Counted from the first letter of the stretch, positions 6,338 through 36,880 are shown. The stretch is 49,598 bases of DNA from a candidate division WWE3 bacterium (GCA_030619715.1 JAUXAW010000004.1:1-49598); one strand, 5' to 3'. The notes: generated by a model from the sequence alone, not told the origin. Numbers and translations: made by a program.

Positions 6338-6347
6338 CACGATCGTG
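6338..6347. repeat. CACGATCGTG palindrome, copy 1
   Basis: Exact core 15 bp upstream of the -35 of the PaaX-like gene. Confidence 0.85.
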
Positions 6348-6362
6348 GGTTTAATACAAACC

Positions 6363-6391
6363 TTGACAAACATGTCTCTGTGTTGTATGAT
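6363..6391 (+). promoter_or_regulatory. Sigma70 promoter of the PaaX-like gene
   Basis: TTGACA (6363-6368), 17 bp, TATGAT (6386-6391). Confidence 0.85.
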
Positions 6392-6409
6392 CTCCCTTGA
6401 AAGTTAGTC

Positions 6410-6421
6410 TCACGATCGTGA
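6410..6421. repeat. CACGATCGTG palindrome, copy 2
   Basis: TCACGATCGTGA between the predicted TSS and ATG 6426. Confidence 0.9.
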
Positions 6422-6425
6422 AATT

Positions 6426-7235
6426 ATGTCTGATCAAACTAAACCACAAAAGAAAAAACGGGGGAAGAAGAAGGGGCGGGCGTATCTTGGGAGAAAGATT
6501 CTTCGCGTCCTTTCCGCCGCCGCGGAGGCCCTTGACACCTTTGGGGACTTTACCTACAATCCCTATCCCTACCTCTACGCCTCGTTGGGGATGTCATACC
6601 GTAAGGAGCACATTGATGAGGCCGTTCGTGATTTGACCAAAAAAGGTTTGGTGGAGGGCAACAAAAGTGAGGGTCTGCGCCTCACCTCCGCAGGTGCGGA
6701 TGTTAAGAAAAGCCTTTACCAAGCCCGTCAGAAGGAATGGGACGGTAAATGGCGGGTGGTCTTTTTTGACATCCCCGAGGTCCAGAGGGATATCCGCGAC
6801 GGTCTGCGCTTTGAGCTGAAAAAACTGGGATTTGGCCTGTGGCAGCGGTCGGCTTGGGTAACCCCTTTTGACATCGCCGTGGAGCTTAATGCTTATTTGC
6901 AAAAACAAGATCTCTCCGAAGTGGTGCAGATTGTGGTGGGGGAGAGGCTTGGCGAATTAAACGATCGGGAGTTTGCCGCACAAATTTGGCCGCTAAACGA
7001 CCTTAACGAGAGATACGCCCGACTCCTGACTGGTTGGGCGGAGGAGCTCAAAAAGGAAAGTACCGCCGAGGAGAGGCTTCGAGCAGTGCTTGCTTTCCAC
7101 GACCGCTACCTTGATATCTTAGCCTCTGATCCGCAATTGCCGCCTAAACTTCTTCCCGGTCACTGGGTTGGTGACGATGCTCGAGAGCTATTCAAAAAAT
7201 TAAAGTCTATTCTGACTGTAGGTAAGCCATTCTGA
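6426..7235 (+). CDS. PaaX-family protein (wHTH + central Cas2-like domain + PaaX C-terminal domain)
   Basis: WDGKWRVVFFDIPE...RDGLRFELKKLGFGLWQRSAWVTP and C-terminal DPQLPPKLLPGHWVG...ARELF. Confidence 0.88.
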   Translation: MSDQTKPQKKKRGKKKGRAYLGRKILRVLSAAAEALDTFGDFTYNPYPYLYASLGMSYRKEHIDEAVRDLTKKGLVEGNKSEGLRLTSAGADVKKSLYQARQKEWDGKWRVVFFDIPEVQRDIRDGLRFELKKLGFGLWQRSAWVTPFDIAVELNAYLQKQDLSEVVQIVVGERLGELNDREFAAQIWPLNDLNERYARLLTGWAEELKKESTAEERLRAVLAFHDRYLDILASDPQLPPKLLPGHWVGDDARELFKKLKSILTVGKPF

Positions 7236-7243
7236 TGGTGGAT

Positions 7244-7267
7244 TTTAATTCACGATCGTGAATTAAA
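7244..7267. repeat. 24-bp perfect palindrome TTTAATTCACGATCGTGAATTAAA, copy 3
   Basis: Between the PaaX-like stop codon and the comEA start. Confidence 0.95.
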
Positions 7268-7278
7268 GTTTCACAATT

Positions 7279-7956
7279 ATGGAGTCTCTGCCCAAAGCCC
7301 TTCTCAATAAATACCGGTTGCCGCTTGGTGTTTTTCTGATTTTGGCCATCGTGGCCGGTGGGGGAATGCTGGCTCTCACGGGGAGCAGGAGGGGTGGTTC
7401 GGAGATCGAGAAAGTTGAGGTTGAGGCGACTGCCAGCGGTGCTCTGTCTCCGGTGACAAAGATCAAGGTTGATGTTGCTGGCGCGGTCAAAAACCCCGGC
7501 GTTTATGAACTCCTTGAAGATGGTCGTGTTGAGGATGCTCTAAACGCCGCCGGGGGATTTTCGGAGCAGGTAGATAAAGATTGGGTCGCCAAAAACTTGA
7601 ATTTAGCCGCTAAACTCTCCGACGGAGATAAACTCTACATCCCTAAAGTGGGAGAGACCTCCACTTCCTCTTCGGCTACAAACGAGCCCGCTCCCGCATC
7701 AGTTCCACCTTCTGCTGGTGTGGTTTCGGGGACTGAAATCTTGGGTCCCTCGAATTGCTCTCGTGTCAACATCAATACGGCCTCCGCAGGTACGTTGGCT
7801 GATTGTCTATCGGGAATTGGGGAAAGCAAGGCTCAGAGTATCATTAAGTACCGTGAGGATCACGGTGGTTTTAAAAGTATTGGGGAGATTCAAGAGGTTA
7901 GCGGTATTGGCCCCAAGACTTTTGAGAAGATTAAGAGCCAAATCACTGTGGATTGA
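7279..7956 (+). CDS. comEA: Competence DNA receptor ComEA
   Basis: TM helix, SLBB (VDVAGAVKNPGVY), HhH (VNINTA...GIGPKTFEKIK). Confidence 0.93.
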   Translation: MESLPKALLNKYRLPLGVFLILAIVAGGGMLALTGSRRGGSEIEKVEVEATASGALSPVTKIKVDVAGAVKNPGVYELLEDGRVEDALNAAGGFSEQVDKDWVAKNLNLAAKLSDGDKLYIPKVGETSTSSSATNEPAPASVPPSAGVVSGTEILGPSNCSRVNINTASAGTLADCLSGIGESKAQSIIKYREDHGGFKSIGEIQEVSGIGPKTFEKIKSQITVD

Positions 7957-9413
7957 GGAAGCGTATGCTTTACCTACTAACCACCTCCTTCATCATCGGT
8001 ATCTTCCTCGGTAGCCTGCTTCCGGTAACATTTCCCACAACGGCTCTACTTTTTGTCTTGATTGGTTTACTTACGATCGTAGTTTTGTTTCGCCGCGAAC
8101 CCCTTGTGTTTAGACTCAGCACGTGCGTTTTACTACTCGTTGCCGGAATCTGGCGTTATCAATCGGTGCAGCCCACATCGGATTCTACCTGGATTCAGTC
8201 GCTGAACGATGGGCCGGAAATCACTCTCCTCGGCCAAATTGTTGGCGATCCTGAGCGGTTGGGGGCCAAACAGAGACTAGAAACTGGAGGCTTGAGGCTG
8301 GAGGATGGAGCCGTGTTGAAAGGCAAAATCCTCGTCAATGCCCGCCGTTACCCTGAGTATCGCTATGGTAATGAAATCGAGATTGTGGGCCGCCCCGAGA
8401 CCCCACCGGAGCTTGAGGATTTCTCCTACCGTAACTATTTGGCCACAAAAGGTATTTATTCACTGATAGACTATCCGGAAATCACGCTGTTATCATCGGG
8501 AAATGGTAATCGTACCCACGCCGCACTACTAAATTTCAGGAAACTGCTTGAGGAAAAAATCGGCCAAATCTTACCCGAGCCGGAATCATCGCTCTTGGCC
8601 GGGGTCATTTTAGGAGTCAAGCGCAGTTTGCCGAAGGATTTTTACGATGCTTTGCAAAAAAGTGGCACCCTCCACGTGGTTGTCGTTTCAGGCACGAACA
8701 TAACCTATGCGATTAGTGCTCTTCTGGCCATTAGCGGACTTTTGGCGCGGCCGGCAAGGCTAACCTTCGCTACTCTAGGAATTTTGGCCTACGCTCTGAT
8801 GGTCGGTGGGGGAAGCGCTGTTTGGCGCTCAACGCTGATGGGTCTGACCGTTTTGCTCGCCGCCGTCCTCGGTCGCCGTCGGTTGGCCCAGGAGGCGCTT
8901 TTTCTTTCCGCCGCGGTACTCTTATTAGCTAATCCGATGGGGCTTTGGCAGATCGGCTTCCAACTCTCGTTCGCCGCCACCGCCGGTATTATCTTTTTAC
9001 AGGACCTTATTAGGTCACAACTACAAGTCCTGCCGAAACTGGTTAGGCGAGGCCTTGTAACAACATTGGCGGCCCAGATTGGCGTTCTACCAGTAATAAC
9101 TCACAACTTCCAAACCCTTTCCATCGTTTCGCCCCTTTCCAATCTTTTGATTTTTCTTTTGGTTCCGCTGATAACCGTTGGTGGAGCCCTCGTTGGTTTA
9201 ATGGCATTAGTTTGGCTTCCTCTGGGAAGGCTCGTGGCACCTCTGATTTATGTTCCGGCCAAACTTTTCGTTACGATCGTGGAATTATCCGCCAAAGCTC
9301 CGTTTGCGCAGATTGAAATACCGCAACTGCCTGTTTTTGTGTGGTTGGCCTACTATTTGGTTTTGGTATATATTGTGATCCGATGCCCGAAAAAAATTCA
9401 AAACGAGAATTAA
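7953..9413 (+). CDS. comEC: ComEC membrane/competence domain (split ComEC, part 1)
   Basis: GTLHVVVVSGTNI, GFQLSFAATAG, many TM helices, follows comEA. Confidence 0.92.
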   Translation: MRKRMLYLLTTSFIIGIFLGSLLPVTFPTTALLFVLIGLLTIVVLFRREPLVFRLSTCVLLLVAGIWRYQSVQPTSDSTWIQSLNDGPEITLLGQIVGDPERLGAKQRLETGGLRLEDGAVLKGKILVNARRYPEYRYGNEIEIVGRPETPPELEDFSYRNYLATKGIYSLIDYPEITLLSSGNGNRTHAALLNFRKLLEEKIGQILPEPESSLLAGVILGVKRSLPKDFYDALQKSGTLHVVVVSGTNITYAISALLAISGLLARPARLTFATLGILAYALMVGGGSAVWRSTLMGLTVLLAAVLGRRRLAQEALFLSAAVLLLANPMGLWQIGFQLSFAATAGIIFLQDLIRSQLQVLPKLVRRGLVTTLAAQIGVLPVITHNFQTLSIVSPLSNLLIFLLVPLITVGGALVGLMALVWLPLGRLVAPLIYVPAKLFVTIVELSAKAPFAQIEIPQLPVFVWLAYYLVLVYIVIRCPKKIQNEN

Positions 9414-10288
9414 GAAAAATCTTTAACAACAAGGTTCTGGTCCTTCTGGTAATCATCGTTTGTGCTATTTGGCTGGCGGTTGCTTCCAGACCGGACAAAT
9501 TGCTTCACATCTATTTCTGTGATGTGGGTCAAGGCGATGCCATCCTGATTAAAACGCCGCAGAATAAACAAATTCTCGTCGATGGCGGTCAAGGAGACCA
9601 AGTGCTAAAATGTCTCTCAAACGCACTTCCGTTCTACGATCGTAGTCTCGATTTGATTATATTGACGCATCCTCACGCCGACCACGTGGGGGGATTAATC
9701 GAAGTTCTCCGCACCTACCAAATCGAAAAAGTCACTTTCTGGCAAGTGCCGTATAAGAGTGCTGATTTCCAAGAATTTGTTGATTTGGTGGGAAGAAAAA
9801 ATGTGCCGGTTTTGGAAGTGACCGCCGGCGATACTTTGGCTCTAGATCAACAAACCCAGGCCGAGGTCTGGTACCCCTTGTCAAACGAAGAGCTTAAAGT
9901 GCTAGGAATCTCAATTGACCCTTATGACGGCGAAAACGTCAACGACTCTTCTATTGTCTTTCAACTGGTCTGCGGAGACTTTGAAACGCTCCTGACCGGC
10001 GATGCTCCCGACACGGTCCAGAAGCTCCTCTTGCGGCGGGGGACGGTAGAAGAGTCGGATGTTCTCAAAGTGGCGCACCATGGGTCTAGAAATGGGCTTG
10101 ATAGGGAATTTTTGAAAAAGATCAGTCCGAAACTGGCAATCATTTCCGTTGGCGAGGCCAACCGTCACGGTCACCCCCATCAAGAAACCCTTGAAAAATT
10201 AAAAAACGCGGGTGTGGAGATCAAACGCACCGACCTCGACGGCACCATCGAAGTCGTTTCCGATTGCAAAACTTGGTGGGTGAAGTGA
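9383..10288 (+). CDS. ComEC-like metallo-beta-lactamase domain (split ComEC, part 2)
   Basis: DVGQGDA, THPHADHVGG, LKVAHHGS, HGHPH. Start uncertain. Confidence 0.9.
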   Translation: MPEKNSKRELRKIFNNKVLVLLVIIVCAIWLAVASRPDKLLHIYFCDVGQGDAILIKTPQNKQILVDGGQGDQVLKCLSNALPFYDRSLDLIILTHPHADHVGGLIEVLRTYQIEKVTFWQVPYKSADFQEFVDLVGRKNVPVLEVTAGDTLALDQQTQAEVWYPLSNEELKVLGISIDPYDGENVNDSSIVFQLVCGDFETLLTGDAPDTVQKLLLRRGTVEESDVLKVAHHGSRNGLDREFLKKISPKLAIISVGEANRHGHPHQETLEKLKNAGVEIKRTDLDGTIEVVSDCKTWWVK

Positions 10289-10292
10289 ATCG

Positions 10293-10368
10293 TGGTCGGG
10301 GTGGCCGGTCCCGCCCCGGCGGCCTCTGGCTCCCGATGCCAGCGCTCTACTAACTGAGCTACACCCCG
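10293..10368 (-). tRNA. tRNA-Pro(CGG), non-canonical D/T loops
   Basis: Cloverleaf with acceptor CGGGGTG/CACCCCG, anticodon arm CTGGC-ATCGGGA-GCCAG, ACCA end; T-loop GGCGGGA. Confidence 0.8.
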
Positions 10369-10369
10369 G

Positions 10370-10447
10370 TGGTACGCCCGGCAGGACTCGAACCTGCAAG
10401 CATTCGCCTTAGGACGGCGACGTTCTATCCAATTGAACTACGGGCGC
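10370..10447 (-). tRNA. tRNA-Arg(CCT)
   Basis: GCGCCCG acceptor, TCGCC-GTCCTAA-GGCGA, GGTTCGAGTCC, CCA. Confidence 0.93.
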
Positions 10448-10478
10448 GTATCTCTCTTTTTGATATAATAGCATAGCC

Positions 10479-12261: not shown

Positions 12262-12281
12262 CGCACACGCAATTATACCAC

Positions 12282-12328: not shown

Positions 12329-12358
12329 CCAAACAATTTCTGATATAATGGTTCCGCT

Positions 12359-13384
12359 ATGTTCAATCTTCCCACCTTCAACCTCTCCCGCAAAGTGGCC
12401 ATCGACCTCGGGACGGCGAACTCCCTTGTTTATGTTGCCGGGCAAGGGATTGTTTTGAACGAACCGACGGTGGTGGCGATTACCACCGATGACAACAAAG
12501 TTGTTGCCGTAGGTACGGAGGCCAAGGAAATGCTGGGGCGAACGCCGGTTAACATCTCCGCCTCGCGGCCGATGCGCGACGGAGTTATCGCCGATTATCT
12601 GATCACCGAGGCGATGCTCAAATACTTTTTGGGAAAAGCTTGCGGTCGGACGCGAATTTTTAAGCCCGAGGTGATGGTCTCGGTCCCCTCGGGAGTTACT
12701 TCGGTTGAGTCGCGGGCGGTCCTTGACGCAACTGTCTCCGCCGGGGCCAAGGAGGCCTATCTTATCCCCGAGCCTTTAGCCGCGGCGGTAGGGGCCAGGA
12801 TTCCCATCAGTGAGCCCTCGGGTAGTATGGTTATCAACATCGGTGGGGGAACGGTGGAGGTGGCAGTGATTTGCCTTGGTGGCTTGGTTGTTTCTAACTC
12901 CGCACGTGTGGCTGGTAATCAAATTGATGAGGCGATTGCCAACCATCTCCGTCGGACCTACAACCTGATCGTCGGCGACCGCACCGCGGAGATGATCAAA
13001 ATCCAGATCGGCTCAGCCCTGCCGTTGGATGACAATCCCACGTTGGAGGTTAAAGGGCGCGACGCGATTGCCGGTCTGCCGCGGACGGTCGAGCTGACCT
13101 CACACGAGGTCACCGAGGCCATCCAGCCACCGCTGAAGGGGATTGTAGGTGCGATCAAGAATGTTCTAGAGCAGACGCCGCCGGAGCTTTCCTCGGACGT
13201 GATTGACAAGGGGATGGTTTTGACCGGGGGGACAGCTCTTTTAAGAAATATTGACAAGTTTTTGACACAGTCCACCGGCGTCCCTGCCCACATCGCCGAA
13301 AATCCAATCTTGTGCGTAGTTTACGGCGTCGGGACGGCGATTGAGAATCTAGATGTTTTCAAAAAGAGTGTCAGAAAGAGATGA
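12359..13384 (+). CDS. mreB: MreB/Mbl paralogue 1
   Basis: AIDLGTAN, EPLAAA, INIGGGT, LTGGTALL. Confidence 0.93.
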   Translation: MFNLPTFNLSRKVAIDLGTANSLVYVAGQGIVLNEPTVVAITTDDNKVVAVGTEAKEMLGRTPVNISASRPMRDGVIADYLITEAMLKYFLGKACGRTRIFKPEVMVSVPSGVTSVESRAVLDATVSAGAKEAYLIPEPLAAAVGARIPISEPSGSMVINIGGGTVEVAVICLGGLVVSNSARVAGNQIDEAIANHLRRTYNLIVGDRTAEMIKIQIGSALPLDDNPTLEVKGRDAIAGLPRTVELTSHEVTEAIQPPLKGIVGAIKNVLEQTPPELSSDVIDKGMVLTGGTALLRNIDKFLTQSTGVPAHIAENPILCVVYGVGTAIENLDVFKKSVRKR

Positions 13385-14505
13385 TCATCGGATTTGACGC
13401 CAGCCGAGCGCAGCTTCCTGAAAGAGCCGGTCCGGAAAATTACACCTATAATCTTTTAAGGGAGCTTTTAAAGATAGATCGTTGGAACCGCTATCGGTTG
13501 TACTGCAACAACCTTTTGGATTTTGAGCTACCCACCGCTAACTACGAGTTGCGTATCATCAGCTGGCCAAGACTTTGGACTCAAGGCGGATTGGCCCTTG
13601 AGTGTTTAAAAAACCCGCCCGATATTCTCTTCGTTCCCGCACATACGATTCCGATTATCCGGCGTCCGGACTTGAAAACGGTCGTGACGATTCACGACGT
13701 TGGTTTTCAGAAATATCTAAAAACCTACCAGCGTTGGTGGGGAAGACTGTATGAAGGCCGGGTTTCCAACTACGCTGCCCGAGCGGCAACTCATGTCATT
13801 GCCGTCTCCGAATCTACAAAAAAAGATTTGATCGAAAAGCTTGGTGTTAAGCCAGATAAAATAACGGTTATCTATGAGGGAGTAGACCATAGGAAATTCA
13901 AAGTGCAAAGTGCAAAGTTCAAAATTGACCACGTGAAACGGGGATATGATATTGGAGGGGAATATTTGTTGTTCGTAGGTACGATTCAACCGCGGAAAAA
14001 TCTGGTACGCCTCATCGAAGCATTCAAAAAAACACGGAGTCCCCAAATCTCCCTAATAGTAGTCGGGAAGAAGGGCTGGTTGTCTGACGAAATCTACAAC
14101 GCCCCAAAGAAGTTTGGGATGGAGGACAGAGTAAAATTTTTAGGCTACGTACCTACGGATGATATTGTTTCGTTGATGAACGGGGCTTTGGCGTTTGTCT
14201 TTCCTTCGCTGTATGAGGGCTTTGGCCTGCCGGTTTTGGAGGCAATGGCCTGTGGCTGTCCGGTCGTTACCTCGAGCATCTCCTCCCTGCCGGAGGTCGT
14301 TGGTGACGCGGGGATTTTGGTTGATCCTTATGATGTTGAGGACATCGCGCGGGGGATTAGCGTGATTTTAGAGCTCGACGAAGCACAACGCCGAAATTTG
14401 GTTGATGCGGGGTTGGAGCGGGCTCGGAAATTCACTTGGGAAGAAACAGCTAAGCAGACGATCAAAGTCCTGGTCCCGGAAGATATGTTTAATTCACGAT
14501 CGTGA
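13381..14505 (+). CDS. Glycosyltransferase family 4
   Basis: [19 protein letters not shown]. Stop codon lies inside palindrome copy 4. Confidence 0.93.
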
Positions 14506-14511
14506 ATTAAA
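14488..14511. repeat. 24-bp perfect palindrome, copy 4
   Basis: TTTAATTCACGATCGTGAATTAAA at the GT4/WecB junction. Confidence 0.95.
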
Positions 14512-14543: not shown

Positions 14544-15350
14544 ATGGAGCGTATTAATATCTTAGGTGTTAAAGTTAGCAGAGTTACCTATGAATATGCT
14601 ATTAAGATTATTGAGGGTTTTCTAACCGATGAGGGGAAACACCAAATTGTCACCCCTAACCCGGAGTTTGTTGTTTTGGCCCAAAAGGATTTGGAATTTC
14701 GTACGATTCTCAACCGAGCTGATTTAACCGTTCCCGACGGGGTCGGTTTGCGAGTGGCGGCGAAGTTTCTCTCCCTGCCTACATTTAATTTCACGATCGT
14801 GAAATTTTTTCAGCTTCTATTTCAGGGTCTTCTCGTAGGTGCAGCAGCAGTTTTTAAGCCCTCGTTTCTTGACGTGTTACCCCACACAGTGACCGGAACG
14901 GATTTGATGCTTGGATTGTGTGATCTGGCATCGAAAAAAGGTTATTCTGTTTTTCTTTTGGGCGGTCGGGGTGGGGCAGCGGAGGCGGCGGCTAAGCGTT
15001 TGAAGGTGCGGTTTGCCAATTTAAACATCATCGGCACGTATGAAGGTGGTTCGTGGGAGGAGTTTGAAGGAAAGACAGCCGATTTTCTCTTCGTCGCCTA
15101 CGGTGCGCCCAAACAGGAAAAATGGATCGCCCGAAATCTTCCCAAAATTTCGGTCAAGGTGGCGATGGGGGTTGGAGCAGGCATTGATTTTACCGCCGGA
15201 AGGAAAAAAAGAGCTCCGGGAATTTTGCGCCGTTTGGGTTTCGAGTGGCTCTGGCGTTTGGTGCAAGAACCCTTCCGTCTGAGGCGAATCCTTAATGCCA
15301 CTGTTAAATTCCCCCTGCTGGTTTTTTGGCAGAAGTTAAGTCAAAAATAA
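14544..15350 (+). CDS. WecB/TagA/CpsF family glycosyltransferase
   Basis: IVTPNPE, PDGVG, YGAPKQE, EWLWRLVQEP. Confidence 0.92.
   Translation: MERINILGVKVSRVTYEYAIKIIEGFLTDEGKHQIVTPNPEFVVLAQKDLEFRTILNRADLTVPDGVGLRVAAKFLSLPTFNFTIVKFFQLLFQGLLVGAAAVFKPSFLDVLPHTVTGTDLMLGLCDLASKKGYSVFLLGGRGGAAEAAAKRLKVRFANLNIIGTYEGGSWEEFEGKTADFLFVAYGAPKQEKWIARNLPKISVKVAMGVGAGIDFTAGRKKRAPGILRRLGFEWLWRLVQEPFRLRRILNATVKFPLLVFWQKLSQK
14787..14806. repeat. 20-bp palindrome AATTTCACGATCGTGAAATT, copy 5 (intragenic)
   Basis: Read in frame as NFTIVKF in the WecB gene. Confidence 0.9.
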
Positions 15351-15453: not shown

Positions 15454-15658
15454 ATAATTCCATCCGGTCCCCTCAGCGGGGCTTGAAGGTCGTTAACGAT
15501 CCCTTTAATTTCCAGCCTGCCTCATCTTCAGTATTTTTAATAATTTCAAGAGAGGAGTCTCAAGGGCAATTGGCAGTACCAGAGCACCTTAAAACTTTTA
15601 TCAGGAGGTATCAAACTGTTAAGGTGCCTTCCCATTCGGGCTTTCTGGTCCGCCTCCC
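15427..15658 (-). ncRNA. Candidate ~230-nt structured small RNA, family unknown
   Basis: Own TTGACA-17-AAGACT promoter (15693-15665), a terminator, several stems, no credible ORF. Confidence 0.45.
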
Positions 15659-15725
15659 AATCTCAGTCTTGCACAAATTTTCAGTCTTGTCAAGCGGCTC
15701 GGAATCGTGTAGAATAATCCCGATC

Positions 15726-17303
15726 ATGGTACCCGAATCACTTTTGAAAAAAGCCAAAGGGCTGGTTGTCCCTCCGGTTGATGGTCCACTAAAAATCTTG
15801 ATCGTCGCCCCGGAGGTGTCGCCCTACGCCAGCGTCGGTGGCTTTGCTCGCGTGACCGCCTATCTCTCCCGGGCTCTCATTGACCTCGGCCACGACGTCC
15901 GTCTCTTTATGCCTAAGTTTGGCTTTATTGACGAGGAAAAGTATCCGATGGAGATGGTTCGCAAGGGTCTCAGAGTCCCCACCGGCACCCCCGAAAAACC
16001 CCACCTTATCTGCAATGTCAAGTTCAGTGTAGTTCCCGGCGGCGCTCCGGTTTATTTCTTGGAAAATATGGAGTATTACGAGAAGCGAGCCAATGTCTAT
16101 GGTTACAGCGACGACCCCCTCCGCTGGGCCCTTCTCTCTCGTGGGGCTTTAGAATTCTTAAAAAAATCAGACTGGCAACCCCAGGTTATCCACTGCAATG
16201 ACTGGCAGACTGGTTTTATCCCCAATTATCTGAGGACCGTTTATGGCAAGGACAGAAAGTTGATGCCTCTTTCCACCGTTTTTACGATTCACAACCTGAT
16301 GTACCAGGGGATATTTGACCATCGCACTATCTCCGAGCTCGATTTTGACGACGGCCGCTCGCAAATCGCCTCTTTCTTCTCCGAGCGGCTCAATAAGCAG
16401 AACTTTATGCGCCGGGGGATTATCTACGCTGATGCTGTCAACGCGGTTTCCAAAACTTACGCCAAAGAAATTTTGACCCCCGTGTTGGGCGAAGGGTTGG
16501 ACCGCCTGCTTGTGGAGGTTCGCTCCAAGCTTTTTGGAATCATCAACGGAGTTGACTACGATGAGTTTAACCCCACCACCGACCGGCTGGTGGATACTAA
16601 CTATGATGCTAACCACCTGGAAAAGCGGGTCCGGAACAAGCTGGCGCTACAAGGTGAATTTGATTTGGAACAAGGCGAGAACACTTTTGTGATAGGATTT
16701 GTGGGAAGACTTAGTGAGCAAAAGGGACTGGATTTGATTTTTGAAATTTTGTGGCCTTTCTTGAAAGAGTTTAAAGACGCGCAGTTTTTTCAGGTTGGTG
16801 GCGGAGATGGTAAATATATTGAGATTCTAAAAAAACTTAAGAAGGAGTATCCCGAACAGGTGGGAATCCATCCCCTACCCAACTTTACCCTGCCGCGGCT
16901 TCTTTTCTCCGGCTGCGACGTGATGGTGATTCCCTCCAAATTTGAACCTTGCGGTCAGGTCCAGCTGGAGGCGATGCACTACGGAGCGATTCCGATTGTG
17001 CGCGCCACCGGCGGTCTGGCGGACACGGTGGAGAACTTTGACCCGCTTAAAGATTTGGGTACCGGTTTTGTCTTTAAGGAGTTTGATAAATGGCCGTTTT
17101 TTGCTCAGGTAGTACGAGCCTACGAGGTGTTCCAGCACAAAAGGATTTGGCAGGAGTTGCAAAAGCGGGCGATGCGGGTCGATTTCTCCTGGGAGGCCTC
17201 GGCCAAAAAATACGTTGAGCTTTACAAGAAAGCCATCCACCGCCACCGCCGGGTTCTGATTGTCGAAGGACAGATAGCTCCCGAGGAAGGAGAACAGGAC
17301 TAG
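15726..17303 (+). CDS. glgA: Glycogen/starch synthase (GT5) paralogue 1
   Basis: HCNDWQ, FTIHNL, SKFEPCG, TGGLADTV. Start moved to ATG 15726. KxGGL motif reads SVGGF. Confidence 0.9.
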   Translation: MVPESLLKKAKGLVVPPVDGPLKILIVAPEVSPYASVGGFARVTAYLSRALIDLGHDVRLFMPKFGFIDEEKYPMEMVRKGLRVPTGTPEKPHLICNVKFSVVPGGAPVYFLENMEYYEKRANVYGYSDDPLRWALLSRGALEFLKKSDWQPQVIHCNDWQTGFIPNYLRTVYGKDRKLMPLSTVFTIHNLMYQGIFDHRTISELDFDDGRSQIASFFSERLNKQNFMRRGIIYADAVNAVSKTYAKEILTPVLGEGLDRLLVEVRSKLFGIINGVDYDEFNPTTDRLVDTNYDANHLEKRVRNKLALQGEFDLEQGENTFVIGFVGRLSEQKGLDLIFEILWPFLKEFKDAQFFQVGGGDGKYIEILKKLKKEYPEQVGIHPLPNFTLPRLLFSGCDVMVIPSKFEPCGQVQLEAMHYGAIPIVRATGGLADTVENFDPLKDLGTGFVFKEFDKWPFFAQVVRAYEVFQHKRIWQELQKRAMRVDFSWEASAKKYVELYKKAIHRHRRVLIVEGQIAPEEGEQD

Positions 17304-17336: not shown

Positions 17337-18587
17337 ATGTACTTGGCTCTGTTTCTCCACCTCTATCAGCCTCCCACTCAATTTGCTAAAGTCCTGAAAT
17401 CTATTACCGACGACTCTTACCGGCGACTGCTAACTGTCATTTGGAAGTATCCAAGTGCTAAGTTGACGATAAACGTCTCCGGGTCGTTAACCGAGCAGCT
17501 AGCCGCTCACGCTGATTTGCGCAGATGTCTAGCTGATCTCGCTGATTTGGTTGAGAAGGGTCAGGTAGAGTTGGTGGGGAGTGCGGCTTATCATCCGCTT
17601 TTGACGGAGATTCCCAGAGACGAAATCCGCCGTCAGATTCTTCTCAACGACGCGATCAACAAGAGATATTTTGGTGATATGTATAACCCACGCGGCCTTT
17701 TCCCACCGGAGATGGCGGTTAACCGTCAGGTTCTGGAGGTTGTTGCAGAGATGGGATTCGATTGGATTTTGGTGGACGAATCGGCCATAAAAACTCAAAA
17801 ATCAATCCGCCACTGGCGGATCAAAAAGCAAAAATCTTTTATAAATCAAGGTTTGAGGGTTTTCGTCAGAAATTCCGATCTTTCCATCAAGATCGCCTTC
17901 AGCCAAATCCGCACGGTTGAGGAGTTAAAAAAGGAAATCTCCGCTAGGGAGCTAGGTGCTGAGGGCTATGTGCTACTTGCCATGGACGGCGAAACCTTCG
18001 GCCACCACCGCCCGGAGCAGTTCGAGCTGCTATCGCAACTCTTCGCTGCAAGCTCTAAGGATGAAATACAGTTGGTGACAATTTCCGAGCTTCAAGACCT
18101 CATCAAAACCGAACCTGTTGAAGTTGAACTTCAAACATCATCCTGGGGGCCGTGGAAGAGGTGGAAGAACCCGGAGAACCCCATCCACCAGCTTCAGTGG
18201 AAGCTCTTTCATTTGGCAACCAAAACAGTTAGGGGATCAAAGTATAGTTCGGAAAACTCGGAAAACTCAGTGAGTCAGAAAATCAGTGAGCCAGAGGACC
18301 AGAATATCAGAAGTTCTGACACACCGACACACCGACACACTGATACACCGAGTCGTTCTGAGTTTTCTGAATCTCGACAATGGCTTAAAGCAAGAGAACT
18401 CCTGGACAAAGCAATCCATAGCGACCAGTTCTGGTGGGCCTCCGCCCGCCCCTGCTGGCATTATCAGATGGTTGAGCGGGGGGCGAGGATGCTCAAAAAC
18501 GTTGTCTCGACGAGGCAGGCTAAAGAACTTTATGATAAGATTATCGAAACTGGATTGAAACTTCACGGAAAGCGAGTGATCGAATGA
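17337..18587 (+). CDS. Glycoside hydrolase family 57, paralogue 1
   Basis: HLYQP, FPPEMA, DGETFGHH, HSDQFWW; carries a 44-aa insertion relative to paralogue 2. Confidence 0.9.
   Translation: MYLALFLHLYQPPTQFAKVLKSITDDSYRRLLTVIWKYPSAKLTINVSGSLTEQLAAHADLRRCLADLADLVEKGQVELVGSAAYHPLLTEIPRDEIRRQILLNDAINKRYFGDMYNPRGLFPPEMAVNRQVLEVVAEMGFDWILVDESAIKTQKSIRHWRIKKQKSFINQGLRVFVRNSDLSIKIAFSQIRTVEELKKEISARELGAEGYVLLAMDGETFGHHRPEQFELLSQLFAASSKDEIQLVTISELQDLIKTEPVEVELQTSSWGPWKRWKNPENPIHQLQWKLFHLATKTVRGSKYSSENSENSVSQKISEPEDQNIRSSDTPTHRHTDTPSRSEFSESRQWLKARELLDKAIHSDQFWWASARPCWHYQMVERGARMLKNVVSTRQAKELYDKIIETGLKLHGKRVIE
18248..18371. mobile_element. ~124-bp fold-back element in frame in GH57
   Basis: Imperfect terminal inverted repeats; homologous to 47392-47512; absent from the adjacent paralogue. 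Confidence 0.75.
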
Positions 18588-19936
18588 TTTGGGCCAATTT
18601 TCTTCACATCTACCAACCACCAACCCAAACCAAAAGAATTCTGGAGCGGGTGGTCAACGAATCGTACCGGCGGATTATTGCCGAGCTGAAAAAAGCGCCG
18701 AACGCCAAGTTGACCCTCAATATCACCGGCGGCCTAACCGAGCTTTTGGTCGAAAACGGCTTTGGGGACGTTGTTGAGGACCTAAAGGAGTTAGCTCACC
18801 GTGGTCAGATTGAGTTGACCGGCTCGGCCAAATACCACCCCCTTTTGCCAAAACTTCCCCAGTCCGAGGTGATTCGTCAGATTGAACTTGACCACGAGAC
18901 CAACAAGAAATACTTCGGTAATGCCTACAACCCCAAGGGTTTCTTTCCACCTGAGGCCGCCTACAACCGGGAACTGGCTCAAATCGTCGCCGACCTTGGC
19001 TTTGAGTGGATTTTGGCTGAGGAATTGTCGTATAACGGGACTTTTGGGGCGGTAAAATGGGACCGGTGTTATGAAGTTGAGGGGAGTGATTTAAAAATTT
19101 TTTTCAGAGAACGGGAATCTAGTTTTAAGATTCTTTCCGGTCAATTAGGCACTGTCAAACTTTTTGAGGATTACCTCGGCGAGCGTCTTGAGCGTAATGA
19201 GTACCTGCTGACGGCGATGGATGGTGAGACCTTCGGCCACCACCGTCCGGGGATGGAAAAGCTTTTGTTTGAGATTTACCGATCACCGCACATACGTACG
19301 GTAACGATTTCGCAGCTGCTGGAATTATTCCCTCAGACCGAAAGCGTCAAAACAATCCCCTCCACCTGGGCGTTGATGGAAAAGGATATCGAGAAAAAGG
19401 CGCCGTTTTCAAGATGGGATGACCCGGAGAATGAGATCCATAAGCTGCAGTGGGAGCTGACACAGCTTGCCATTGATAGCGTTCAAAAGACGGAAAAGCA
19501 ATGGTTGAAAGCAAGAGAACTTCTGGATCGAAGTTTGCATAGCGACCAATTCTGGTGGGCTTCGGCTCGGCCCTGGTGGAGTTTGGAGATGATCGAGCGG
19601 GGGGCTAATGAACTTAAGGGTGTGGTCCTCGCGGCACCGGATGCTTCCGAGAAGACCAAAAAGAAGGCGCAGGAGCTTTATTACGCTATTATCACCAAGG
19701 GTTTTGAGTGGCAGCGGACGGGTAAGGTTGAGGAAATCGCCCGCAAGGAGGACGAGGAAATTCGAGAAAGAACCGATGTGGGAATTCCTAAACTACCGCC
19801 GGAAGAGATTGAGAAGATGGTCGCAAACATCCGCCGGGAAATGCTTGAGGTGGTGGAGAAACAAGAATACGAGCGGGCGGCGCAGCTTAGGGATCGGATC
19901 AAGGAGTTGGAGGAGTATGCGGAGGACAAAAAATGA
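18584..19936 (+). CDS. Glycoside hydrolase family 57, paralogue 2, with C-terminal UvrB/UvrC motif
   Basis: HIYQP, FPPEAA, DGETFGHH; tail EMLEVVEKQEYERAAQLRDRIKEL. Confidence 0.9.
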   Translation: MIWANFLHIYQPPTQTKRILERVVNESYRRIIAELKKAPNAKLTLNITGGLTELLVENGFGDVVEDLKELAHRGQIELTGSAKYHPLLPKLPQSEVIRQIELDHETNKKYFGNAYNPKGFFPPEAAYNRELAQIVADLGFEWILAEELSYNGTFGAVKWDRCYEVEGSDLKIFFRERESSFKILSGQLGTVKLFEDYLGERLERNEYLLTAMDGETFGHHRPGMEKLLFEIYRSPHIRTVTISQLLELFPQTESVKTIPSTWALMEKDIEKKAPFSRWDDPENEIHKLQWELTQLAIDSVQKTEKQWLKARELLDRSLHSDQFWWASARPWWSLEMIERGANELKGVVLAAPDASEKTKKKAQELYYAIITKGFEWQRTGKVEEIARKEDEEIRERTDVGIPKLPPEEIEKMVANIRREMLEVVEKQEYERAAQLRDRIKELEEYAEDKK

Positions 19937-27248: not shown

Positions 27249-28043
27249 CTAGTTTTGAGGGAGGGATCTTTGGGTAGTGGGGGAGAGGTTTTTGGCCACC
27301 AGATAGCCAACACCAAAAGGACCTTCGTACGATAGAAATTGGAGGTTGGAAGTTGGGGGTTGGATAGCTCCAAGTAGGATTACGATTGAGCGCAGGCCAC
27401 ATTCGCCCGCTTCCTCTATCAGTTGGGGGTCAAGATTGATAACGCCCTGAGCATCGTTTTTCTTTAGTAGCTCGACTAAAGTTTGATCAAATTCACGACT
27501 AAGTATCAGTCGGTGGGAGAGGTCGCCGGAGGCAATAATTGCGATGCGGTTGAGCTTATTTTCACAAACCCTGGCAATCATTGCCCCGAACTGATAATGA
27601 TCCTTTAAAGAAAGATCGGTGAAGCCTATGGGGATAAGAGTAGGGGGGTAGGAGAGATTTTTGAGCAGAAAGTAGAGGGGAACGGTGATGCCGTGATCCA
27701 GCTCCGGGGAGGACAAAAGTTTGGTGGAAAGATTATTACCCGCAGCTGCGTGAGCGACTGCGTGGGCCAGTCTACGGTTACCCCTTAATTCAAGTTTGAC
27801 CTCTGGTGCGCCAAACATTGAGAGGTCGCCTAGGAAGGTTTCGGCAAACCTGACGTTGAAGCGATCGGTAAGAATTGGTCCGTGGGGGGAGATGATAATG
27901 ATCGTGTCGACCTTTGCTGCGGCGAAATCGTGCGCCAGCTTTTCCATCGCCGCAATCGTTTTTCTGACTTTGTTGATACTTTCGCCCCCGACCTCAGGTA
28001 CAATCACCGGAGGATGGGGGCAAATGGCAGCAAAAACAATCAT
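27249..28043 (-). CDS. amrB: AmmeMemoRadiSam system protein B (Memo/LigB-like)
   Basis: CPHPP, ISPHG, DHGITVP, ASGDLSH, ECGLRS, YEGPFGVGY. Confidence 0.85.
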   Translation of the reverse strand: MIVFAAICPHPPVIVPEVGGESINKVRKTIAAMEKLAHDFAAAKVDTIIIISPHGPILTDRFNVRFAETFLGDLSMFGAPEVKLELRGNRRLAHAVAHAAAGNNLSTKLLSSPELDHGITVPLYFLLKNLSYPPTLIPIGFTDLSLKDHYQFGAMIARVCENKLNRIAIIASGDLSHRLILSREFDQTLVELLKKNDAQGVINLDPQLIEEAGECGLRSIVILLGAIQPPTSNLQFLSYEGPFGVGYLVAKNLSPTTQRSLPQN

Positions 28044-28044: not shown

Positions 28045-28080
28045 ATGTTTAATTCACGATCGTGAATAAAAACTCACCCT
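28045..28080. repeat. CACGATCGTG palindrome, copy 6, with conserved flanks
   Basis: ATGTTTAATTCACGATCGTGAATAAAAACTCACCCT, nearly identical to 14485-14521. Confidence 0.92.
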
Positions 28081-28970
28081 CAACAGACATAAACAAATTC
28101 AAGCCCGGCATCTTTGCCGATCTGATAGGCCTTCTTCAGGGTCTCCGTCGGCGTCGGGGGTAAATCTCTCAACCCATTGTAATTCGGCGAAAAACGGCTG
28201 AGGTGCCAGGGGGTTTTTAGTCCCAGATTTTCCTTGATCCAACGGGCCAAACGCTCAAACATCTGCGGATTATCATTATACGTTGGAATCACATTGGTCA
28301 CACACTCGATGTGCATCCCCAAATCTTTGGCCAGAACCGTCACCTCCCGAACACCCTTGCCGGATTTGACTCCACAAATTTTTTGGTAAAACCCGTCATC
28401 CATGCTCTTGATATCCGCCCGAAAGGCGTCGAGATAACCTTTTAAAAGTTTTAGCGCCTCGGGCGTGATAAAACCGTTGGTGACATAAACGGTGTAAAGC
28501 CCCTCTTTTTTGGCCAATTTGAAGCAATCCAGGGTGTACTCCAACCAGATCGTCGGTTCATTGTAGGTAAAAGCGAGGCCGGGAAAGCCCGATTTTTTTA
28601 CTTTATCAATAAGTTCTTGAGGGCTTATTTCCGGTCGCGACTTAAATTCGGCCAAGTTTTCATCCTTGAGCTCCGGCGCACCCCAGGTTGACCAGAAGTT
28701 GCAGCAGTGGGGGCAGCGAAAATTACAGCCAAAACCTCCGATTGAGAAGCAAGCGGTTCCGGGATAAAAGTGATAAAGTGGCTTCTTTTCAATCGAATCC
28801 ACCTGCAAGGTGGCGGGTTTGCCGTAGGTCAGAAGATAAAGCTTGCCAGCAGAGTTCAAACGATTCTGACAAACACCCCGCTTTCCCTTGGCAATCACAC
28901 ACCGTCTCTGACAAACACCACACTTCACCCTTTTGTTATCCAGTTTTTCATAAAGCGCCGCCTCATGCAT
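28080..28970 (-). CDS. amrS: AmmeMemoRadiSam system radical SAM enzyme
   Basis: IEKKPLYHFYPG, GCNFRCPHCCN, FTYNEPTI, VTNG. Confidence 0.92.
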   Translation of the reverse strand: MHEAALYEKLDNKRVKCGVCQRRCVIAKGKRGVCQNRLNSAGKLYLLTYGKPATLQVDSIEKKPLYHFYPGTACFSIGGFGCNFRCPHCCNFWSTWGAPELKDENLAEFKSRPEISPQELIDKVKKSGFPGLAFTYNEPTIWLEYTLDCFKLAKKEGLYTVYVTNGFITPEALKLLKGYLDAFRADIKSMDDGFYQKICGVKSGKGVREVTVLAKDLGMHIECVTNVIPTYNDNPQMFERLARWIKENLGLKTPWHLSRFSPNYNGLRDLPPTPTETLKKAYQIGKDAGLEFVYVC

Positions 28971-30968: not shown

Positions 30969-31438
30969 AAAATTTGTTGTTGATTCTGCTTCTTGCCATT
31001 ATTGTCCTCTTGGAAACTTCGGTTCTTCCGTTTTTTCCCATTTTTGGCAATCAACCTAGTCTCTTGCTGATAAGCCTCTTGGCACTGCAATTTCTTGGGT
31101 TGGCCCGAGAGTCCTACTACGGTGCATTTTTCGGTGGCATTCTGTTTGATCTTCTGAGCAGCACAATCTTTGGTCTTAGCAGTTTGATCCTACTTTTGCT
31201 AAGCGGAGCGGTTGGTTTGGCGCGGAGGTTTGCCGGAAACTCTCCTCTGATTTTGCTTTTGATAACTTTTACCGCCTCCATCTCTTTTAGAGTTGCTCAA
31301 GTATTTCCAACCCTCAATGTGGTAAGTTTTTTTAGAGGGGGGCTTTTGGATACGGGGCTGATGATTATCCTTTACCCGACGCTGCGTTATCTTTTAAAAA
31401 GCGTTTTTGGGAGGAGGGAGCTGAAGGTGGGAGCTTGA
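30965..31438 (+). CDS. mreD: Rod shape protein MreD
   Basis: Hydrophobic, GILFDLLS; synteny. Confidence 0.85.
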   Translation: MKNLLLILLLAIIVLLETSVLPFFPIFGNQPSLLLISLLALQFLGLARESYYGAFFGGILFDLLSSTIFGLSSLILLLLSGAVGLARRFAGNSPLILLLITFTASISFRVAQVFPTLNVVSFFRGGLLDTGLMIILYPTLRYLLKSVFGRRELKVGA

Positions 31439-31453
31439 AAATTGAAAATTATT

Positions 31454-34508: not shown

Positions 34509-34519
34509 CCTAGCGTATA

Positions 34520-34543
34520 TTTAATTCACGATCGTGAATTAAA
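34520..34543. repeat. 24-bp perfect palindrome, copy 7
   Basis: Between dprA and topA. Confidence 0.95.
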
Positions 34544-34642
34544 CTTAGTCCTTAGTCAGAAGAGTCTATCGGTTCGAACCGTTGAACTTTTCCGATTGCA
34601 TTTGTTTGTCAATAGACAAGATTGTGTGTTATTCTCAGAGGC

Positions 34643-36772
34643 ATGAAGAATTTGGTCGTGGTGGAGTCGCCGGCGAAGACGAGAACGCTCAAGAAATATT
34701 TGGGTGAGGACTTTGAGATCAAGGCCTCGCTCGGTCACATTAAAGACTTGCCCAAGTCAGAGTTGGGTGTTGACGTCGAAAAAGATTTTGCGCCGCAATA
34801 CGAGGTCGCTCCGAAAAAGAAAAAGGTGGTTAGTGAGCTGAAAGCGGCGGCGAAGAAGGCGGATCAGGTTTTTTTGGCTACCGACCCTGACAGAGAGGGG
34901 GAAGCGATTGCCCAACATGTTTATGAGGTCATAAGCGCAAAGCGCAAAGATCAAAAATCAAAAAGAGTGGTTTTTCATGAGATAACGGAGGACGCTGTTA
35001 AAGCGGCTTTTGCGAATCCGCGTGGAATCGATGCTAACCTTGTTGACGCTCAAAAGGCGCGGAGGGTTTTGGATCGGTTGGTAGGTTACAAGCTTTCGCC
35101 CCTGCTTTGGAAAAAGATTCGCTATGGTCTTTCCGCCGGGCGGGTGCAGTCGGTCGCCGTCAGATTGATCGTTGATCGGGAAAGAGAAAGGGATGCCTTT
35201 AAACCGGACGAGTATTGGAAAGTCGAGGCCGAACTAAAGTCCCAAAGGTCCCCAAACACCCAAACCTTTCCGGCTCTACTAACCAAAAAAGACGATAAAA
35301 AGCTTGAAATCAAGAACAAAAAACAGACCGACTCGATTCTTAAAGATCTGAAAAAAGCCAACTACATTGTCAAAGAAATAAAAACCGAGGAGAAGAAAAG
35401 ATACCCCGCACCTCCGTTTACGACTTCGACCCTACAGCAAACTGCCTTTAACACGTGCGGGTTCTCATCGAAAAGAACAATGCGTATCGCTCAAGCACTC
35501 TACGAGCGGGGACTGATAACCTATCATCGCACCGATTCAACCAGGTTGGCCTCCTCGGCCGTTTCGCAGATTAGAAAATTGATTGCTAAAGAGTTCGGTA
35601 CCAAGTACCTACCCGCAGGTGCGAAAGTGTATAAGACGAAGGCGAAGGTTGCTCAGGAAGCGCATGAAGCGATTCGGGTAACTGATGTTGGTCGCAAACA
35701 GGCTGGGGAGAGGGACGGGATTAAGCTGTACGATCTGATCTGGCGTCGGACGGTGGCCTGTCAGATGAACCCTGCTGTTTTTGACCAGCAGACGGTTGAT
35801 GTGGCTGCTAAAAATTATCTCTTTCGCGCGATTGGGTCGGTGTTGAAGTTTGACGGTTTCCTTAAAGTTTACTCTGGTAAGGTAGGCGAAAAGGACATTA
35901 GGCTTCCGCAACTTACCGAAGGTGAGGAGCTTACTCTGGTCAAACTGACGCCGTCTCAACATTTCACCCAACCCCCAAACCGCTACACCGAGGCGACCCT
36001 GATCAAAGAACTGGAGAAAAACGGCATCGGGCGGCCATCGACCTATGCGCCAACGATTTCGACTATTCAGAGCCGTGGTTATGTTAGCAAGGAGGGGCGA
36101 GCGCTAAAACCGGAGGATGTGGGCTTGGTCGTCAACGATTTGCTGGTTGAGCATTTTCCCGAGATTGTGGACCTCAAATTCACCGCAAGGATGGAGGAGG
36201 ACCTTGACGAGATTGCCGATGGGAAGAGGGAGTGGGTTCCGGTTATCAGGGAGTTTTACGAGCCGTTCGAGAAAAAGTTGGAGACGAAAACTAAGGAATT
36301 GAAGAAGAAGGATTTTACGACGTTGGAGAAAACATCAGAAAAATGTCCGGAATGTAAAAAACCGTTGGTCGTCAAGCTGGGAAAGTACGGAAAATTTTTG
36401 TCCTGTTCTGGATTCCCTAAGTGCAAATATGGCCGTCCGTATGAAGATAAGGACGAGGACGGCAAACCAGATAAGGCAGATAAGAGCCAGCTTAAAGGCG
36501 AGTGCCCCGAGTGTGGGGGAGAACTGGTCTTAAAAGAGGGTAAGTTCGGCAAGTTTATCTCCTGCAGCAAGTATCCGGAGTGCAAATTTACCAAGCAGTA
36601 TTTAGACAAAATCGGGATGAAATGTCCGGAATGTAAGCAGGGGGAGGTTATCATTAAACGTTCCCGCAAAGGCAAAACCTTCTACGGCTGCTCCCGCTAC
36701 CCCAAATGCAAATGGGCCAGTTGGAAGGATCCTCGGAGGAAGCCGTCTAAAGAACGAAATCCTAAATCCTAA
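34643..36772 (+). CDS. topA: DNA topoisomerase I
   Basis: VVESPAK, DPDREGE, SAGRVQS, ITYHRTDS, three Zn ribbons. Confidence 0.97.
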   Translation: MKNLVVVESPAKTRTLKKYLGEDFEIKASLGHIKDLPKSELGVDVEKDFAPQYEVAPKKKKVVSELKAAAKKADQVFLATDPDREGEAIAQHVYEVISAKRKDQKSKRVVFHEITEDAVKAAFANPRGIDANLVDAQKARRVLDRLVGYKLSPLLWKKIRYGLSAGRVQSVAVRLIVDRERERDAFKPDEYWKVEAELKSQRSPNTQTFPALLTKKDDKKLEIKNKKQTDSILKDLKKANYIVKEIKTEEKKRYPAPPFTTSTLQQTAFNTCGFSSKRTMRIAQALYERGLITYHRTDSTRLASSAVSQIRKLIAKEFGTKYLPAGAKVYKTKAKVAQEAHEAIRVTDVGRKQAGERDGIKLYDLIWRRTVACQMNPAVFDQQTVDVAAKNYLFRAIGSVLKFDGFLKVYSGKVGEKDIRLPQLTEGEELTLVKLTPSQHFTQPPNRYTEATLIKELEKNGIGRPSTYAPTISTIQSRGYVSKEGRALKPEDVGLVVNDLLVEHFPEIVDLKFTARMEEDLDEIADGKREWVPVIREFYEPFEKKLETKTKELKKKDFTTLEKTSEKCPECKKPLVVKLGKYGKFLSCSGFPKCKYGRPYEDKDEDGKPDKADKSQLKGECPECGGELVLKEGKFGKFISCSKYPECKFTKQYLDKIGMKCPECKQGEVIIKRSRKGKTFYGCSRYPKCKWASWKDPRRKPSKERNPKS

Positions 36773-36820
36773 ATCCGAAGCTCCAAACAAATTCTAAATT
36801 CGAAATTCTAAAAACCAAAA
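36757..36820 (+). repeat. Heptamer array (AAATCCT-like)
   Basis: Overlaps and supplies the topA stop codon. Confidence 0.8.
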
Positions 36821-36865
36821 CTTAGACATCCCGCAACCACAGCCTTTACAGTTGTGAATTAAACG

Positions 36866-36880
36866 CACGATCGTGAATTT
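36866..36880. repeat. CACGATCGTG palindrome, copy 8
   Basis: CACGATCGTGAATTT, preceded by a degenerate copy at 36845-36863. Confidence 0.88.

Follow-up and report, generated by a model that had tools for sequence, protein, structure and literature searches.

A PaaX-fold gene beside comEA-comEC in a WWE3 bacterium and the palindromes that may be its own binding sites

The contig JAUXAW010000004.1 of a candidate division WWE3 bacterium (GCA_030619715.1), analyzed here over its whole 49,598 nt and called the window, carries a PaaX-like gene between leuS and the DNA-uptake genes comEA and comEC, together with a family of palindromes that lie on both sides of this gene and at other gene junctions. 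The locus raises two questions: do the palindromes belong to the PaaX-like protein, and what would the protein do with them? Counts of the palindrome and a comparison of gene flanks answer the first, as gene and palindrome are linked far beyond chance, both here and family-wide. For the second, we give somewhat better than an even chance to the reading that the palindromes are binding sites through which the protein would shut down its own expression, control read-through into comEA-comEC and act on about 12 other junctions.

The centre of the palindrome, the 10-mer CACGATCGTG, has eight exact matches in the window (at 6338, 6411, 7251, 14495, 14792, 28055, 34527 and 36866), and the mean count in 100 dinucleotide-preserving shuffles of the window was 0.02, with 0/100 shuffles reaching eight. 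An identical perfect 24-mer palindrome starts at 7244, 14488 and 34520, and the copy at 28048 is one base off. An earlier description of this DNA, made by a model and called here the sequence-only reading, had reported eight copies at these positions as far above chance and three of them as the same perfect 24-mer; both counts were reproduced. Three copies were also said to bracket the PaaX-like gene, and they do so at 6338 and 6411 upstream and at 7251 downstream of the open reading frame (ORF) at 6426-7235. The remaining copies lie, as had been described, at gene junctions or inside WecB, a gene that is matched here as WecG/TagA-family. The sites and the genes that adjoin them are as follows.

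6331..6354: site 1; the 10-mer core is exact, the 7 mismatches to the 24-mer all fall in the imperfect arms, and the -35 hexamer follows 9 nt downstream
6363..6391, + strand: promoter-like TTGACA-17-TATGAT before the PaaX-like gene, between the copies at 6338 and 6411
6404..6427: site 2, exact core, with an arm that extends into the ATG at 6426
6426..7235, + strand: PaaX-fold gene, 269 aa (putative winged helix, Cas2-like domain keeping the Asp of strand beta-1, D115, and PaaX_C)
7244..7267: site 3, perfect 24-mer; the PaaX-like gene has its stop codon 9 nt before it, and comEA starts 11 nt after it
7279-7956, + strand: comEA, downstream of site 3
7953-9413, + strand: comEC
9341-10288, + strand: ORF with a metallo-beta-lactamase domain, counted with comEA and comEC as DNA-uptake genes (7279..10288)
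14488..14511: site 4, perfect 24-mer lying across the stop codon of the GT4 gene 13381-14505; the WecG/TagA-family gene follows after 32 nt
14785..14808: site 5, a 20-nt perfect palindrome (14787-14806) within the WecG/TagA-family gene 14544-15350, codons 81-89
27249-28043 and 28080-28970, both - strand: LigB/Memo-like gene and radical-SAM gene, flanking site 6
28048..28071: site 6, 24-mer with a single mismatch; the radical-SAM gene ends 9 nt before it and the LigB/Memo-like gene starts 4 nt after it
34520..34543: site 7, perfect 24-mer; the dprA stop codon is 12 nt before it and the called start of topA 78 nt after it
36859..36882: site 8, with variant arms of a second class, between convergent genes and 87 nt past the stop codon of topA

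The genome to which the window belongs (G000) comprises 674,026 bases in 36 contigs and is rated 91.8% complete, the window being contig C14. The genome-wide motif count that the sequence-only reading had proposed gave 15 exact copies of CACGATCGTG, 8 of them on the 49.6-kb window contig (binomial P = 3.4e-6); two extra copies with one core mismatch and good flanking arms bring the total to 17 sites. The pattern with its letters reversed does not occur in the genome. With ORFs outside the window called by a simple in-house script, 14/17 sites are intergenic and 2/17 lie inside well-supported genes, the host gene of the second being a threonyl-tRNA synthetase, named by eye from its translation. 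At six sites, the start of the 24-mer is 12 nt or less from a stop codon, anywhere between an overlap of a few bases and 12 nt beyond it. The genes before or after the sites on other contigs encode a TrxB-like oxidoreductase, an RNase T-type exonuclease, an RsmD-like methyltransferase, DNA polymerase III delta', GyrB (site ~640 nt upstream), a Xer-like recombinase (site 66 nt after the gene, with a like arrangement at locus L071 of another genome) and DnaJ. DNA uptake sequences (DUS/USS) number hundreds to thousands of copies across a genome, and 15 exact copies in 674 kb, with 8 on one contig, do not place this family among them.

Two of the sites lie 88 nt apart between divergent genes, 86-174 nt upstream of a tRNA-Arg(CCG) gene (C22:25317-25566; L136 5318-5567).

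The link between gene and palindrome was assessed in 45 homologues with both flanks available from 13 related small genomes, by aligning the 250 nt upstream with the 250 nt downstream and comparing the scores with 1,500 mismatched flank pairs. The flank score exceeded the 99th percentile of the mismatched pairs in 26/45 homologues, or in 29/45 when either orientation was counted; direct copies scored better in 18, inverted copies in 6, and the two were about equal in 5. The shared stretches, ~17 to 150 nt and mostly 30-50 nt long, are long and often perfect palindromes that are distinct for each paralogue, and most are centred on CGATCG or GATC. The proposal that the palindrome belongs to the PaaX-like protein, each homologue having its own flanking copy, is thus upheld in 26 of the 45. 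The core found in the window also stands on both sides of two genes elsewhere, the positional orthologue of G010 and a paralogue of G016, and it adjoins a paralogue in G021. The motifs of other paralogues likewise have solo copies (1-4 each), so that the places, including the two flank copies, number 6 in G016, 3 in G021 and 5 in G004. In several homologues, e.g. at L018, the palindrome overlaps -35/-10-like hexamers. The genome of the window has two further paralogues, on contigs C17 and C11, and no palindromes flanking these two were found. Since each paralogue is associated with its own palindrome, sequence-specific binding by the protein would most simply explain the association.

The sequence-only reading had expected the link to fail if the motif were equally abundant in relatives that lack the gene. 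One relative without a PaaX-like match has five exact copies of the 10-mer, all within ORFs and none palindromically extended; because each paralogue has its own motif, the abundance of this exact 10-mer in relatives says little, and the condition is not an apt one. A scan of species genomes for the exact pattern returned 63 stretches, 12 with Patescibacteria-type labels and 22 with Hungatella/Lachnospiraceae/Clostridium-type labels, and a PaaX-like ORF is present in 4/63.

The 22 Hungatella/Lachnospiraceae/Clostridium-type records (including L074, L077, L080 and L086) carry a 24-base palindrome with the same 10-base centre and other arms. No PaaX-like ORF lies in their 8-kb loci, so this palindrome is probably the site of an unrelated factor.

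The ORF at 6426-7235 matches PaaX_M (PF20803; 80.4 bits, cut-off 24) and PaaX_C (PF08223; 44.8 bits, cut-off 22), and its residues 1-100, which have no Pfam match, are modelled as helices at 47-54 and 60-72 and then two strands at 76-86. The AlphaFold model, made from a 27-sequence alignment (pLDDT 87.5), matches E. coli PaaX over the whole chain (8A39; E 3.2e-10), Rv0674 (3KFW; 1e-8) and 3L09 (8.5e-4), and the same structure search matches Cas2 and VapD chains weakly, over the central ~80 residues only. The family profile aligns to 8A39 with E = 5e-22 and reaches the Cas2 chains 6JHZ, 3EXC and 8IA4 at E ~0.005. The window gene has the PaaX fold, i.e. a putative winged helix, a Cas2-like domain and PaaX_C, yet it is not the phenylacetate PaaX. 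On the PaaX equivalog model TIGR02277, it scores 91.5 bits, below the cut-off of 264.55; PaaA/PaaC (PF05138) has no match in the genome and no paa genes are present in the window. The sequence-only reading had described a PaaX-like protein with a Cas2-like fold and no phenylacetate genes nearby, and the Pfam domains, the fold search and the PF05138 search agree with it. Cas1 (PF01867) has no match in the genome, CRISPR arrays not having been scanned for.

Several residues of the Cas2-like domain set the family apart from the repressor. W105, D115, R124, S142 and a C-terminal D-P-x-L-P motif are invariant in the family alignment (n=27), and Q140 is nearly so. D115, kept in 27/27 sequences, stands in the model where the first strand of the Cas2-like domain ends. 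When the family profile is aligned to E. coli PaaX, this region has a two-residue gap, the Asp is absent and the family's Q-x-S-V-W positions hold other residues; Rv0674 also lacks the Asp. With the Asp and the motifs kept here and absent from E. coli PaaX, the subfamily of the window gene retains a signature of Cas2 type, one that was lost in the characterised repressor.

With 8,903 clusters at E up to 0.001 and 599 at 1e-30, the family is large. Protein matches were found in 13/41 related genomes, with 3 to 17 per genome of <=1 Mb (17, 11 and 6 in the top three), and the nearest paralogues are 36-80% identical. Among nine close paralogue pairs, the identities of the N-terminal, Cas2-like and C-terminal parts show no consistent pattern. 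A metagenome scan for close relatives gave one locus at 39% identity, and a class-wide search (134 species) gave no further homologue at E up to 1e-25. A search of viral contigs and true phage records found no homologue; two records labelled 'Acinetobacter phage' match, through a gene annotated as paaX.

The position next to the DNA-uptake genes recurs as well. leuS, comEA and comEC are neighbours in most relatives, and in a survey of 30 comEA loci, leuS is followed directly by comEA in 13, with a gap of 0-45 nt in 12 and of 137 nt in one, and no palindrome in any. Empty leuS-comEA sites, which the sequence-only reading had suggested looking for, are therefore found in 13 relatives. The PaaX-like gene occupies the leuS-comEA gap at three loci (G000, G021 and G010), precedes comEA in G011 and lies between comEA and comEC in G001. 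These five comEA-linked genes, from five families, form a clade with three paralogues of G021 (support 97/97). A quick tree from the last 290 LeuS residues, a fragment of one protein, served as a rough stand-in for the host tree; on it, the four carriers with LeuS data are scattered, which takes 4 changes, and the starred branches force at least 3. By the clade tied to the com locus and the scattered presence on the LeuS tree, the PaaX-like gene is an old companion of the DNA-uptake genes, yet an accessory one that was gained or lost several times.

In G030 and G036 (L181 and L180), the leuS-comEA gap holds a gene for a four-helix-bundle protein of the 23S-rRNA-intervening-sequence type (PF05635), and the junction looks like a hotspot for small inserted genes. 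One orthologue pair of PaaX-like genes, in G001 and G003, is syntenic. For another paralogue of G003, the region between the conserved flanks is wholly different in G001, and the same palindromes stand at G001 contig ends; G001 was considered as an empty site for this paralogue and dropped, the absence of the gene being indistinguishable from an assembly gap. Palindromes of the type that flanks the gene in G003, a sister species, lie at the starts of the G001 contigs C45 and C8 (first 130 nt; L066 and L067), and such repeats may break assemblies, hiding short genes between them.

How would the protein use its palindromes? In the reading that we favour, the 10-mer would be the centre of a DNA site recognised by the protein of 6426-7235, a dimer of which would contact the palindrome with its winged helices. 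The gene's own promoter would be repressed from sites 1 and 2, and binding at site 3, between its own stop codon and comEA, would block read-through into comEA-comEC. The ~12 further sites, mostly a few bases past the stop codon at same-strand junctions, would act as protein-dependent blocks or operators, with sites 7 and 8, which bracket topA (the core at 36866 is 94 nt after the gene), as the clearest further example. On sensing a ligand with its Cas2-like and C-terminal part, the protein would come off its sites.

This reading has a precedent: according to PMC9493321, PaaX of E. coli is a repressor of its own promoter, and its binding site consists of two inverted hexamers spaced 27 bp apart. 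In the window, the promoter-like sequence at 6363-6391 has 11/12 matches to the sigma-70-type TTGACA-17-TATAAT, two such sequences being present in the 1.2-kb stretch vs 0.9 expected from shuffles, and site 2 lies ~13-22 nt downstream of the transcription start that this promoter would give. The PaaX precedent and the promoter between two sites support a self-repressing regulator that may gate comEA-comEC. In the family palindromes, the arm mismatches read in the gene sense number 12 G-T and 8 A-C (485 arm pairs; a small sample), and the lack of a G-T excess over A-C speaks for a site in double-stranded DNA and against an RNA stem as the target of selection. Among the three options raised by the sequence-only reading, an operator regulon touching competence and envelope genes fits best: the promoter between the copies and the comEA-comEC clade in five families speak for it, and the absence of a clear common function among the neighbours speaks against it.

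Several observations weigh against this assignment. The genes next to sites (comEA, WecG, Memo-like, topA, TrxB-like, gyrB upstream, Xer-like, dnaJ and tRNA-Arg) are those without a clear common function. No good promoters were found at the solo sites, where the matches reach only 9/12 and in part run across start codons. The upstream stop codon is closer to the sites than the following start codon is, a position usual for a repetitive extragenic palindrome (REP) and not for an operator. A downstream copy is the rule even where the next gene is convergent, which plain autorepression does not explain, and the upstream and downstream copies agree at non-palindromic positions, mostly with the same polarity. 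Such agreement and polarity point to duplication or gene conversion, and not to selection of half-sites alone. Three identical 24-mers, together with perfect palindromes of 40-50 nt in relatives, would be unusual for operators, and the Cas2-type residues of the family are the ones that the true repressor PaaX lacks. Binding and repression thus leave unexplained the downstream copies, the non-palindromic agreement, the perfect long palindromes, the position after stop codons and the Cas2 signature.

There are also signs that palindromes were copied. The copies at 14495 and 28055 have ~40 nt in common, some of them beyond the palindrome, yet the two face opposite ways with respect to transcription. 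Six sites on other contigs (C4:79060; C22:25317 and 25405; C33:3312, 24091 and 31360) lie in related ~100-nt elements with phased AAACTTTT-type A/T repeats, in which up to 29/38 flank bases are identical. Solo sites in further genomes labelled as Patescibacteria carry a 38-nt palindrome built on the same 22-base centre, one at orthologous positions in two genomes (L073 and L095) and one after the Xer-like gene of L071, as in G000. Several copies therefore look copied rather than evolved in place.

Site 5 was considered as an in-frame insertion in WecG, since most relatives match the protein in two pieces with ~32 residues missing between them. Relatives with a long linker share the segment and its conserved glycines, and with this homology a block insertion was rejected. 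The half-site CACGAT has a -35-like hexamer 16-18 nt upstream in 5/34 orientations vs 1.6% of random positions; 4/5 of these cases are related copies of one ~100-nt element, and one is antisense. As a lead only, CACGAT could serve as a -10 hexamer in the ~100-nt elements, where the -35-like hexamer is 17-18 nt upstream.

The unexplained features, together with the copied-looking copies, keep a role like that of REPs and their associated tyrosine transposases (RAYTs) in contention, as an unlikely but serious alternative. In this case, the Cas2-like domain would cut or nick the palindrome as a duplex, hairpin or cruciform, and palindromes beside the protein's own gene and at the ends of other genes would in this way be copied, converted or maintained. 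An element would then have the flanking copies as its ends and the solo copies as its non-autonomous derivatives. The bracket of 26/45 homologues, present even with convergent neighbours, fits such a role, as do the flank copies that agree outside the palindrome with polarity kept, the three identical 24-mers, the ~40 nt common to 14495 and 28055, and the six related elements on other contigs. So do the clustering of sites near the gene and just past stop codons, the 1-4 solo copies of other paralogues, the leuS/comEA junction that is empty in 13 relatives with the gene scattered on the LeuS tree, and the Cas2 signature that is kept here, lost in E. coli PaaX and Rv0674, and carried by a profile that reaches Cas2 chains. 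However, no near-identical gene copies occur within one genome, the nearest paralogues being 36-80% identical, and the G001/G003 orthologue pair is syntenic. Each motif has 3-17 copies, far from hundreds, the coding segment around site 5 has homologous counterparts in relatives and so was not inserted as a block, and viral contigs and true phage records yielded no homologue. We also know of no PaaX-family protein with a catalytic activity, which counts against cleavage. REP-like spread had been the second option of the sequence-only reading, and the evidence on it is divided: the identical 24-mers, the ~40-nt shared block and the ~100-nt elements favour it, and the divergence of the paralogues counts against it.

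A bolder version, which we put forward as a doubtful speculation, goes further. PaaX-like proteins of the candidate phyla radiation (CPR) type would be an evolutionary link from Cas2 to PaaX that still uses a Cas2-type active site, a site-specific nuclease that keeps private CGATCG-centred palindromes at the ends of its own gene and seeds others. The result would be a REP/RAYT-like partnership of host and element on a different fold, here wired to comEA-comEC, on which these bacteria are thought to depend.

The third option raised earlier was that the palindromes act in RNA, as mRNA hairpins that the Cas2/VapD-like domain would cut or bind, setting cistron boundaries or transcript stability; we consider this very improbable. 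The sites do lie at cistron junctions on the transcribed strand, endoribonucleases are present among the Cas2 and VapD relatives by their PDB chain titles, and the hairpin at 7230-7285 folds at -17.5 kcal/mol (z = -4.6). However, the other four solo hairpins fold at only ~-10 to -12 kcal/mol (z -1.6 to -2.2) with A+U-rich stems, and the mismatch counts given above, 12 vs 8 for sense-strand G-U and A-C, show no excess. Sites are also found between convergent genes and upstream of promoters, and the protein has a putative winged helix of DNA type and, by its model, resembles a DNA-binding repressor in its fold as a whole. None of the copies coincides with a terminator-like site, U-tract terminators were not found at the sites, and an Rfam scan gave tRNAs only. 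With weak folding and no G-U excess, the hairpin option found no support.

The least probable explanation, and one to which we give hardly any weight, is that the palindromes are structural or recombination sites of some other factor with the PaaX-like gene adjacent only secondarily (supercoiling-sensing cruciforms near topA/gyrB, sites of the Xer-like recombinase, or REPs of a borderline Y1-transposase-like ORF at C33:14685-15458), for although sites adjoin topA, stand upstream of gyrB and follow the Xer-like gene by 66 nt, the last also at L071, the bracket recurs in 26/45 homologues with a different palindrome per paralogue, which one trans-acting factor common to all would leave unexplained, no inverted repeats lie near the Y1-like ORF, whose distance from any site is >8 kb, and a search for a Dam-type (D12-class) methylase found none, with one weak C5-methylase-like match. 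The Y1-like ORF itself encodes 257 aa (L189 1180-1953, - strand) and scores 23.0 bits on the IS200-type Y1_Tnp model (cut-off 23).

The favoured reading, in which the PaaX-like protein would bind its private palindromes, can be set beside known systems. PaaX of E. coli and Pseudomonas (8A39, TIGR02277) has the same three-part fold, with PaaX_M and PaaX_C above the Pfam cut-offs here, and its long palindrome-like operator and repression of its own promoter, as given in PMC9493321, match the long palindromes and the promoter between sites. Unlike PaaX, the protein of the window scores 91.5 vs 264.55 bits, has no PaaA/PaaC in its genome and keeps the Cas2-type Asp and the R/Q-S-V-W motifs; its relatives are multi-copy genes (3-17 per <=1-Mb genome), with a downstream site, solo sites at gene ends and a CGATCG centre. 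In REP/REPIN-RAYT systems, as described in PMC3116915 and PMC3337134, a single-copy gene is flanked by its own short palindromes, which are dispersed outside genes with several specificities per genome, as here. The differences are a PaaX/Cas2-like fold instead of a Y1 HUH transposase, 3-17 copies vs tens to hundreds, palindromes that are self-symmetric with mostly direct flank copies, and a system known here from sequence alone.

The central domain also aligns by profile to Cas2 chains and keeps the Asp at the end of beta-1. Unlike Cas2, it is fused between a putative winged helix and PaaX_C, no Cas1 was found in the genome, and the palindromes flank the gene and form no array. HIP1 of cyanobacteria is a highly iterated octamer palindrome on a CGATCG centre, with thousands of copies and no known dedicated flanked gene. 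The present palindromes have the CGATCG centre in common with it, but they are 24-50 nt long, few, and tied to one gene each. Literature searches, which did not cover supplements, found no paper that links PaaX-like proteins with Patescibacteria, Cas2-like domains or such palindromes. As far as these searches reach, a PaaX-family DNA-binding protein with private predicted sites is an arrangement that has not been described in print.

To our knowledge, regulation in Patescibacteria is almost unstudied, and few regulators can be recognised in their genomes. A large family with probable DNA sites that can be read from sequence would make specificity rules and regulons predictable across thousands of uncultured genomes. 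A dedicated switch for comEA-comEC would give a concrete handle on natural competence, which PMC10633639 reports in Saccharibacteria. If the Cas2 signature is catalytic, the family would show either the path from a CRISPR-type domain to a repressor domain or a palindrome-spreading system of a new kind.

Other genes of the window were noted in passing. The open frame at 3-3584 (- strand; 1,194 aa) runs off the window end and has no Pfam match at E up to 1e-5. Among the genes at 15483-17303 and 18584-19936, glycogen synthase has ~100 additional N-terminal residues ahead of the GlgA match, and of two GH57 genes in tandem, one has a UvrB/UvrC motif at its end. The ribosomal protein S2 gene (37559-38434) encodes a C-terminal tail of ~60 residues (232-291) that matches models of the RNA polymerase alpha C-terminal domain.

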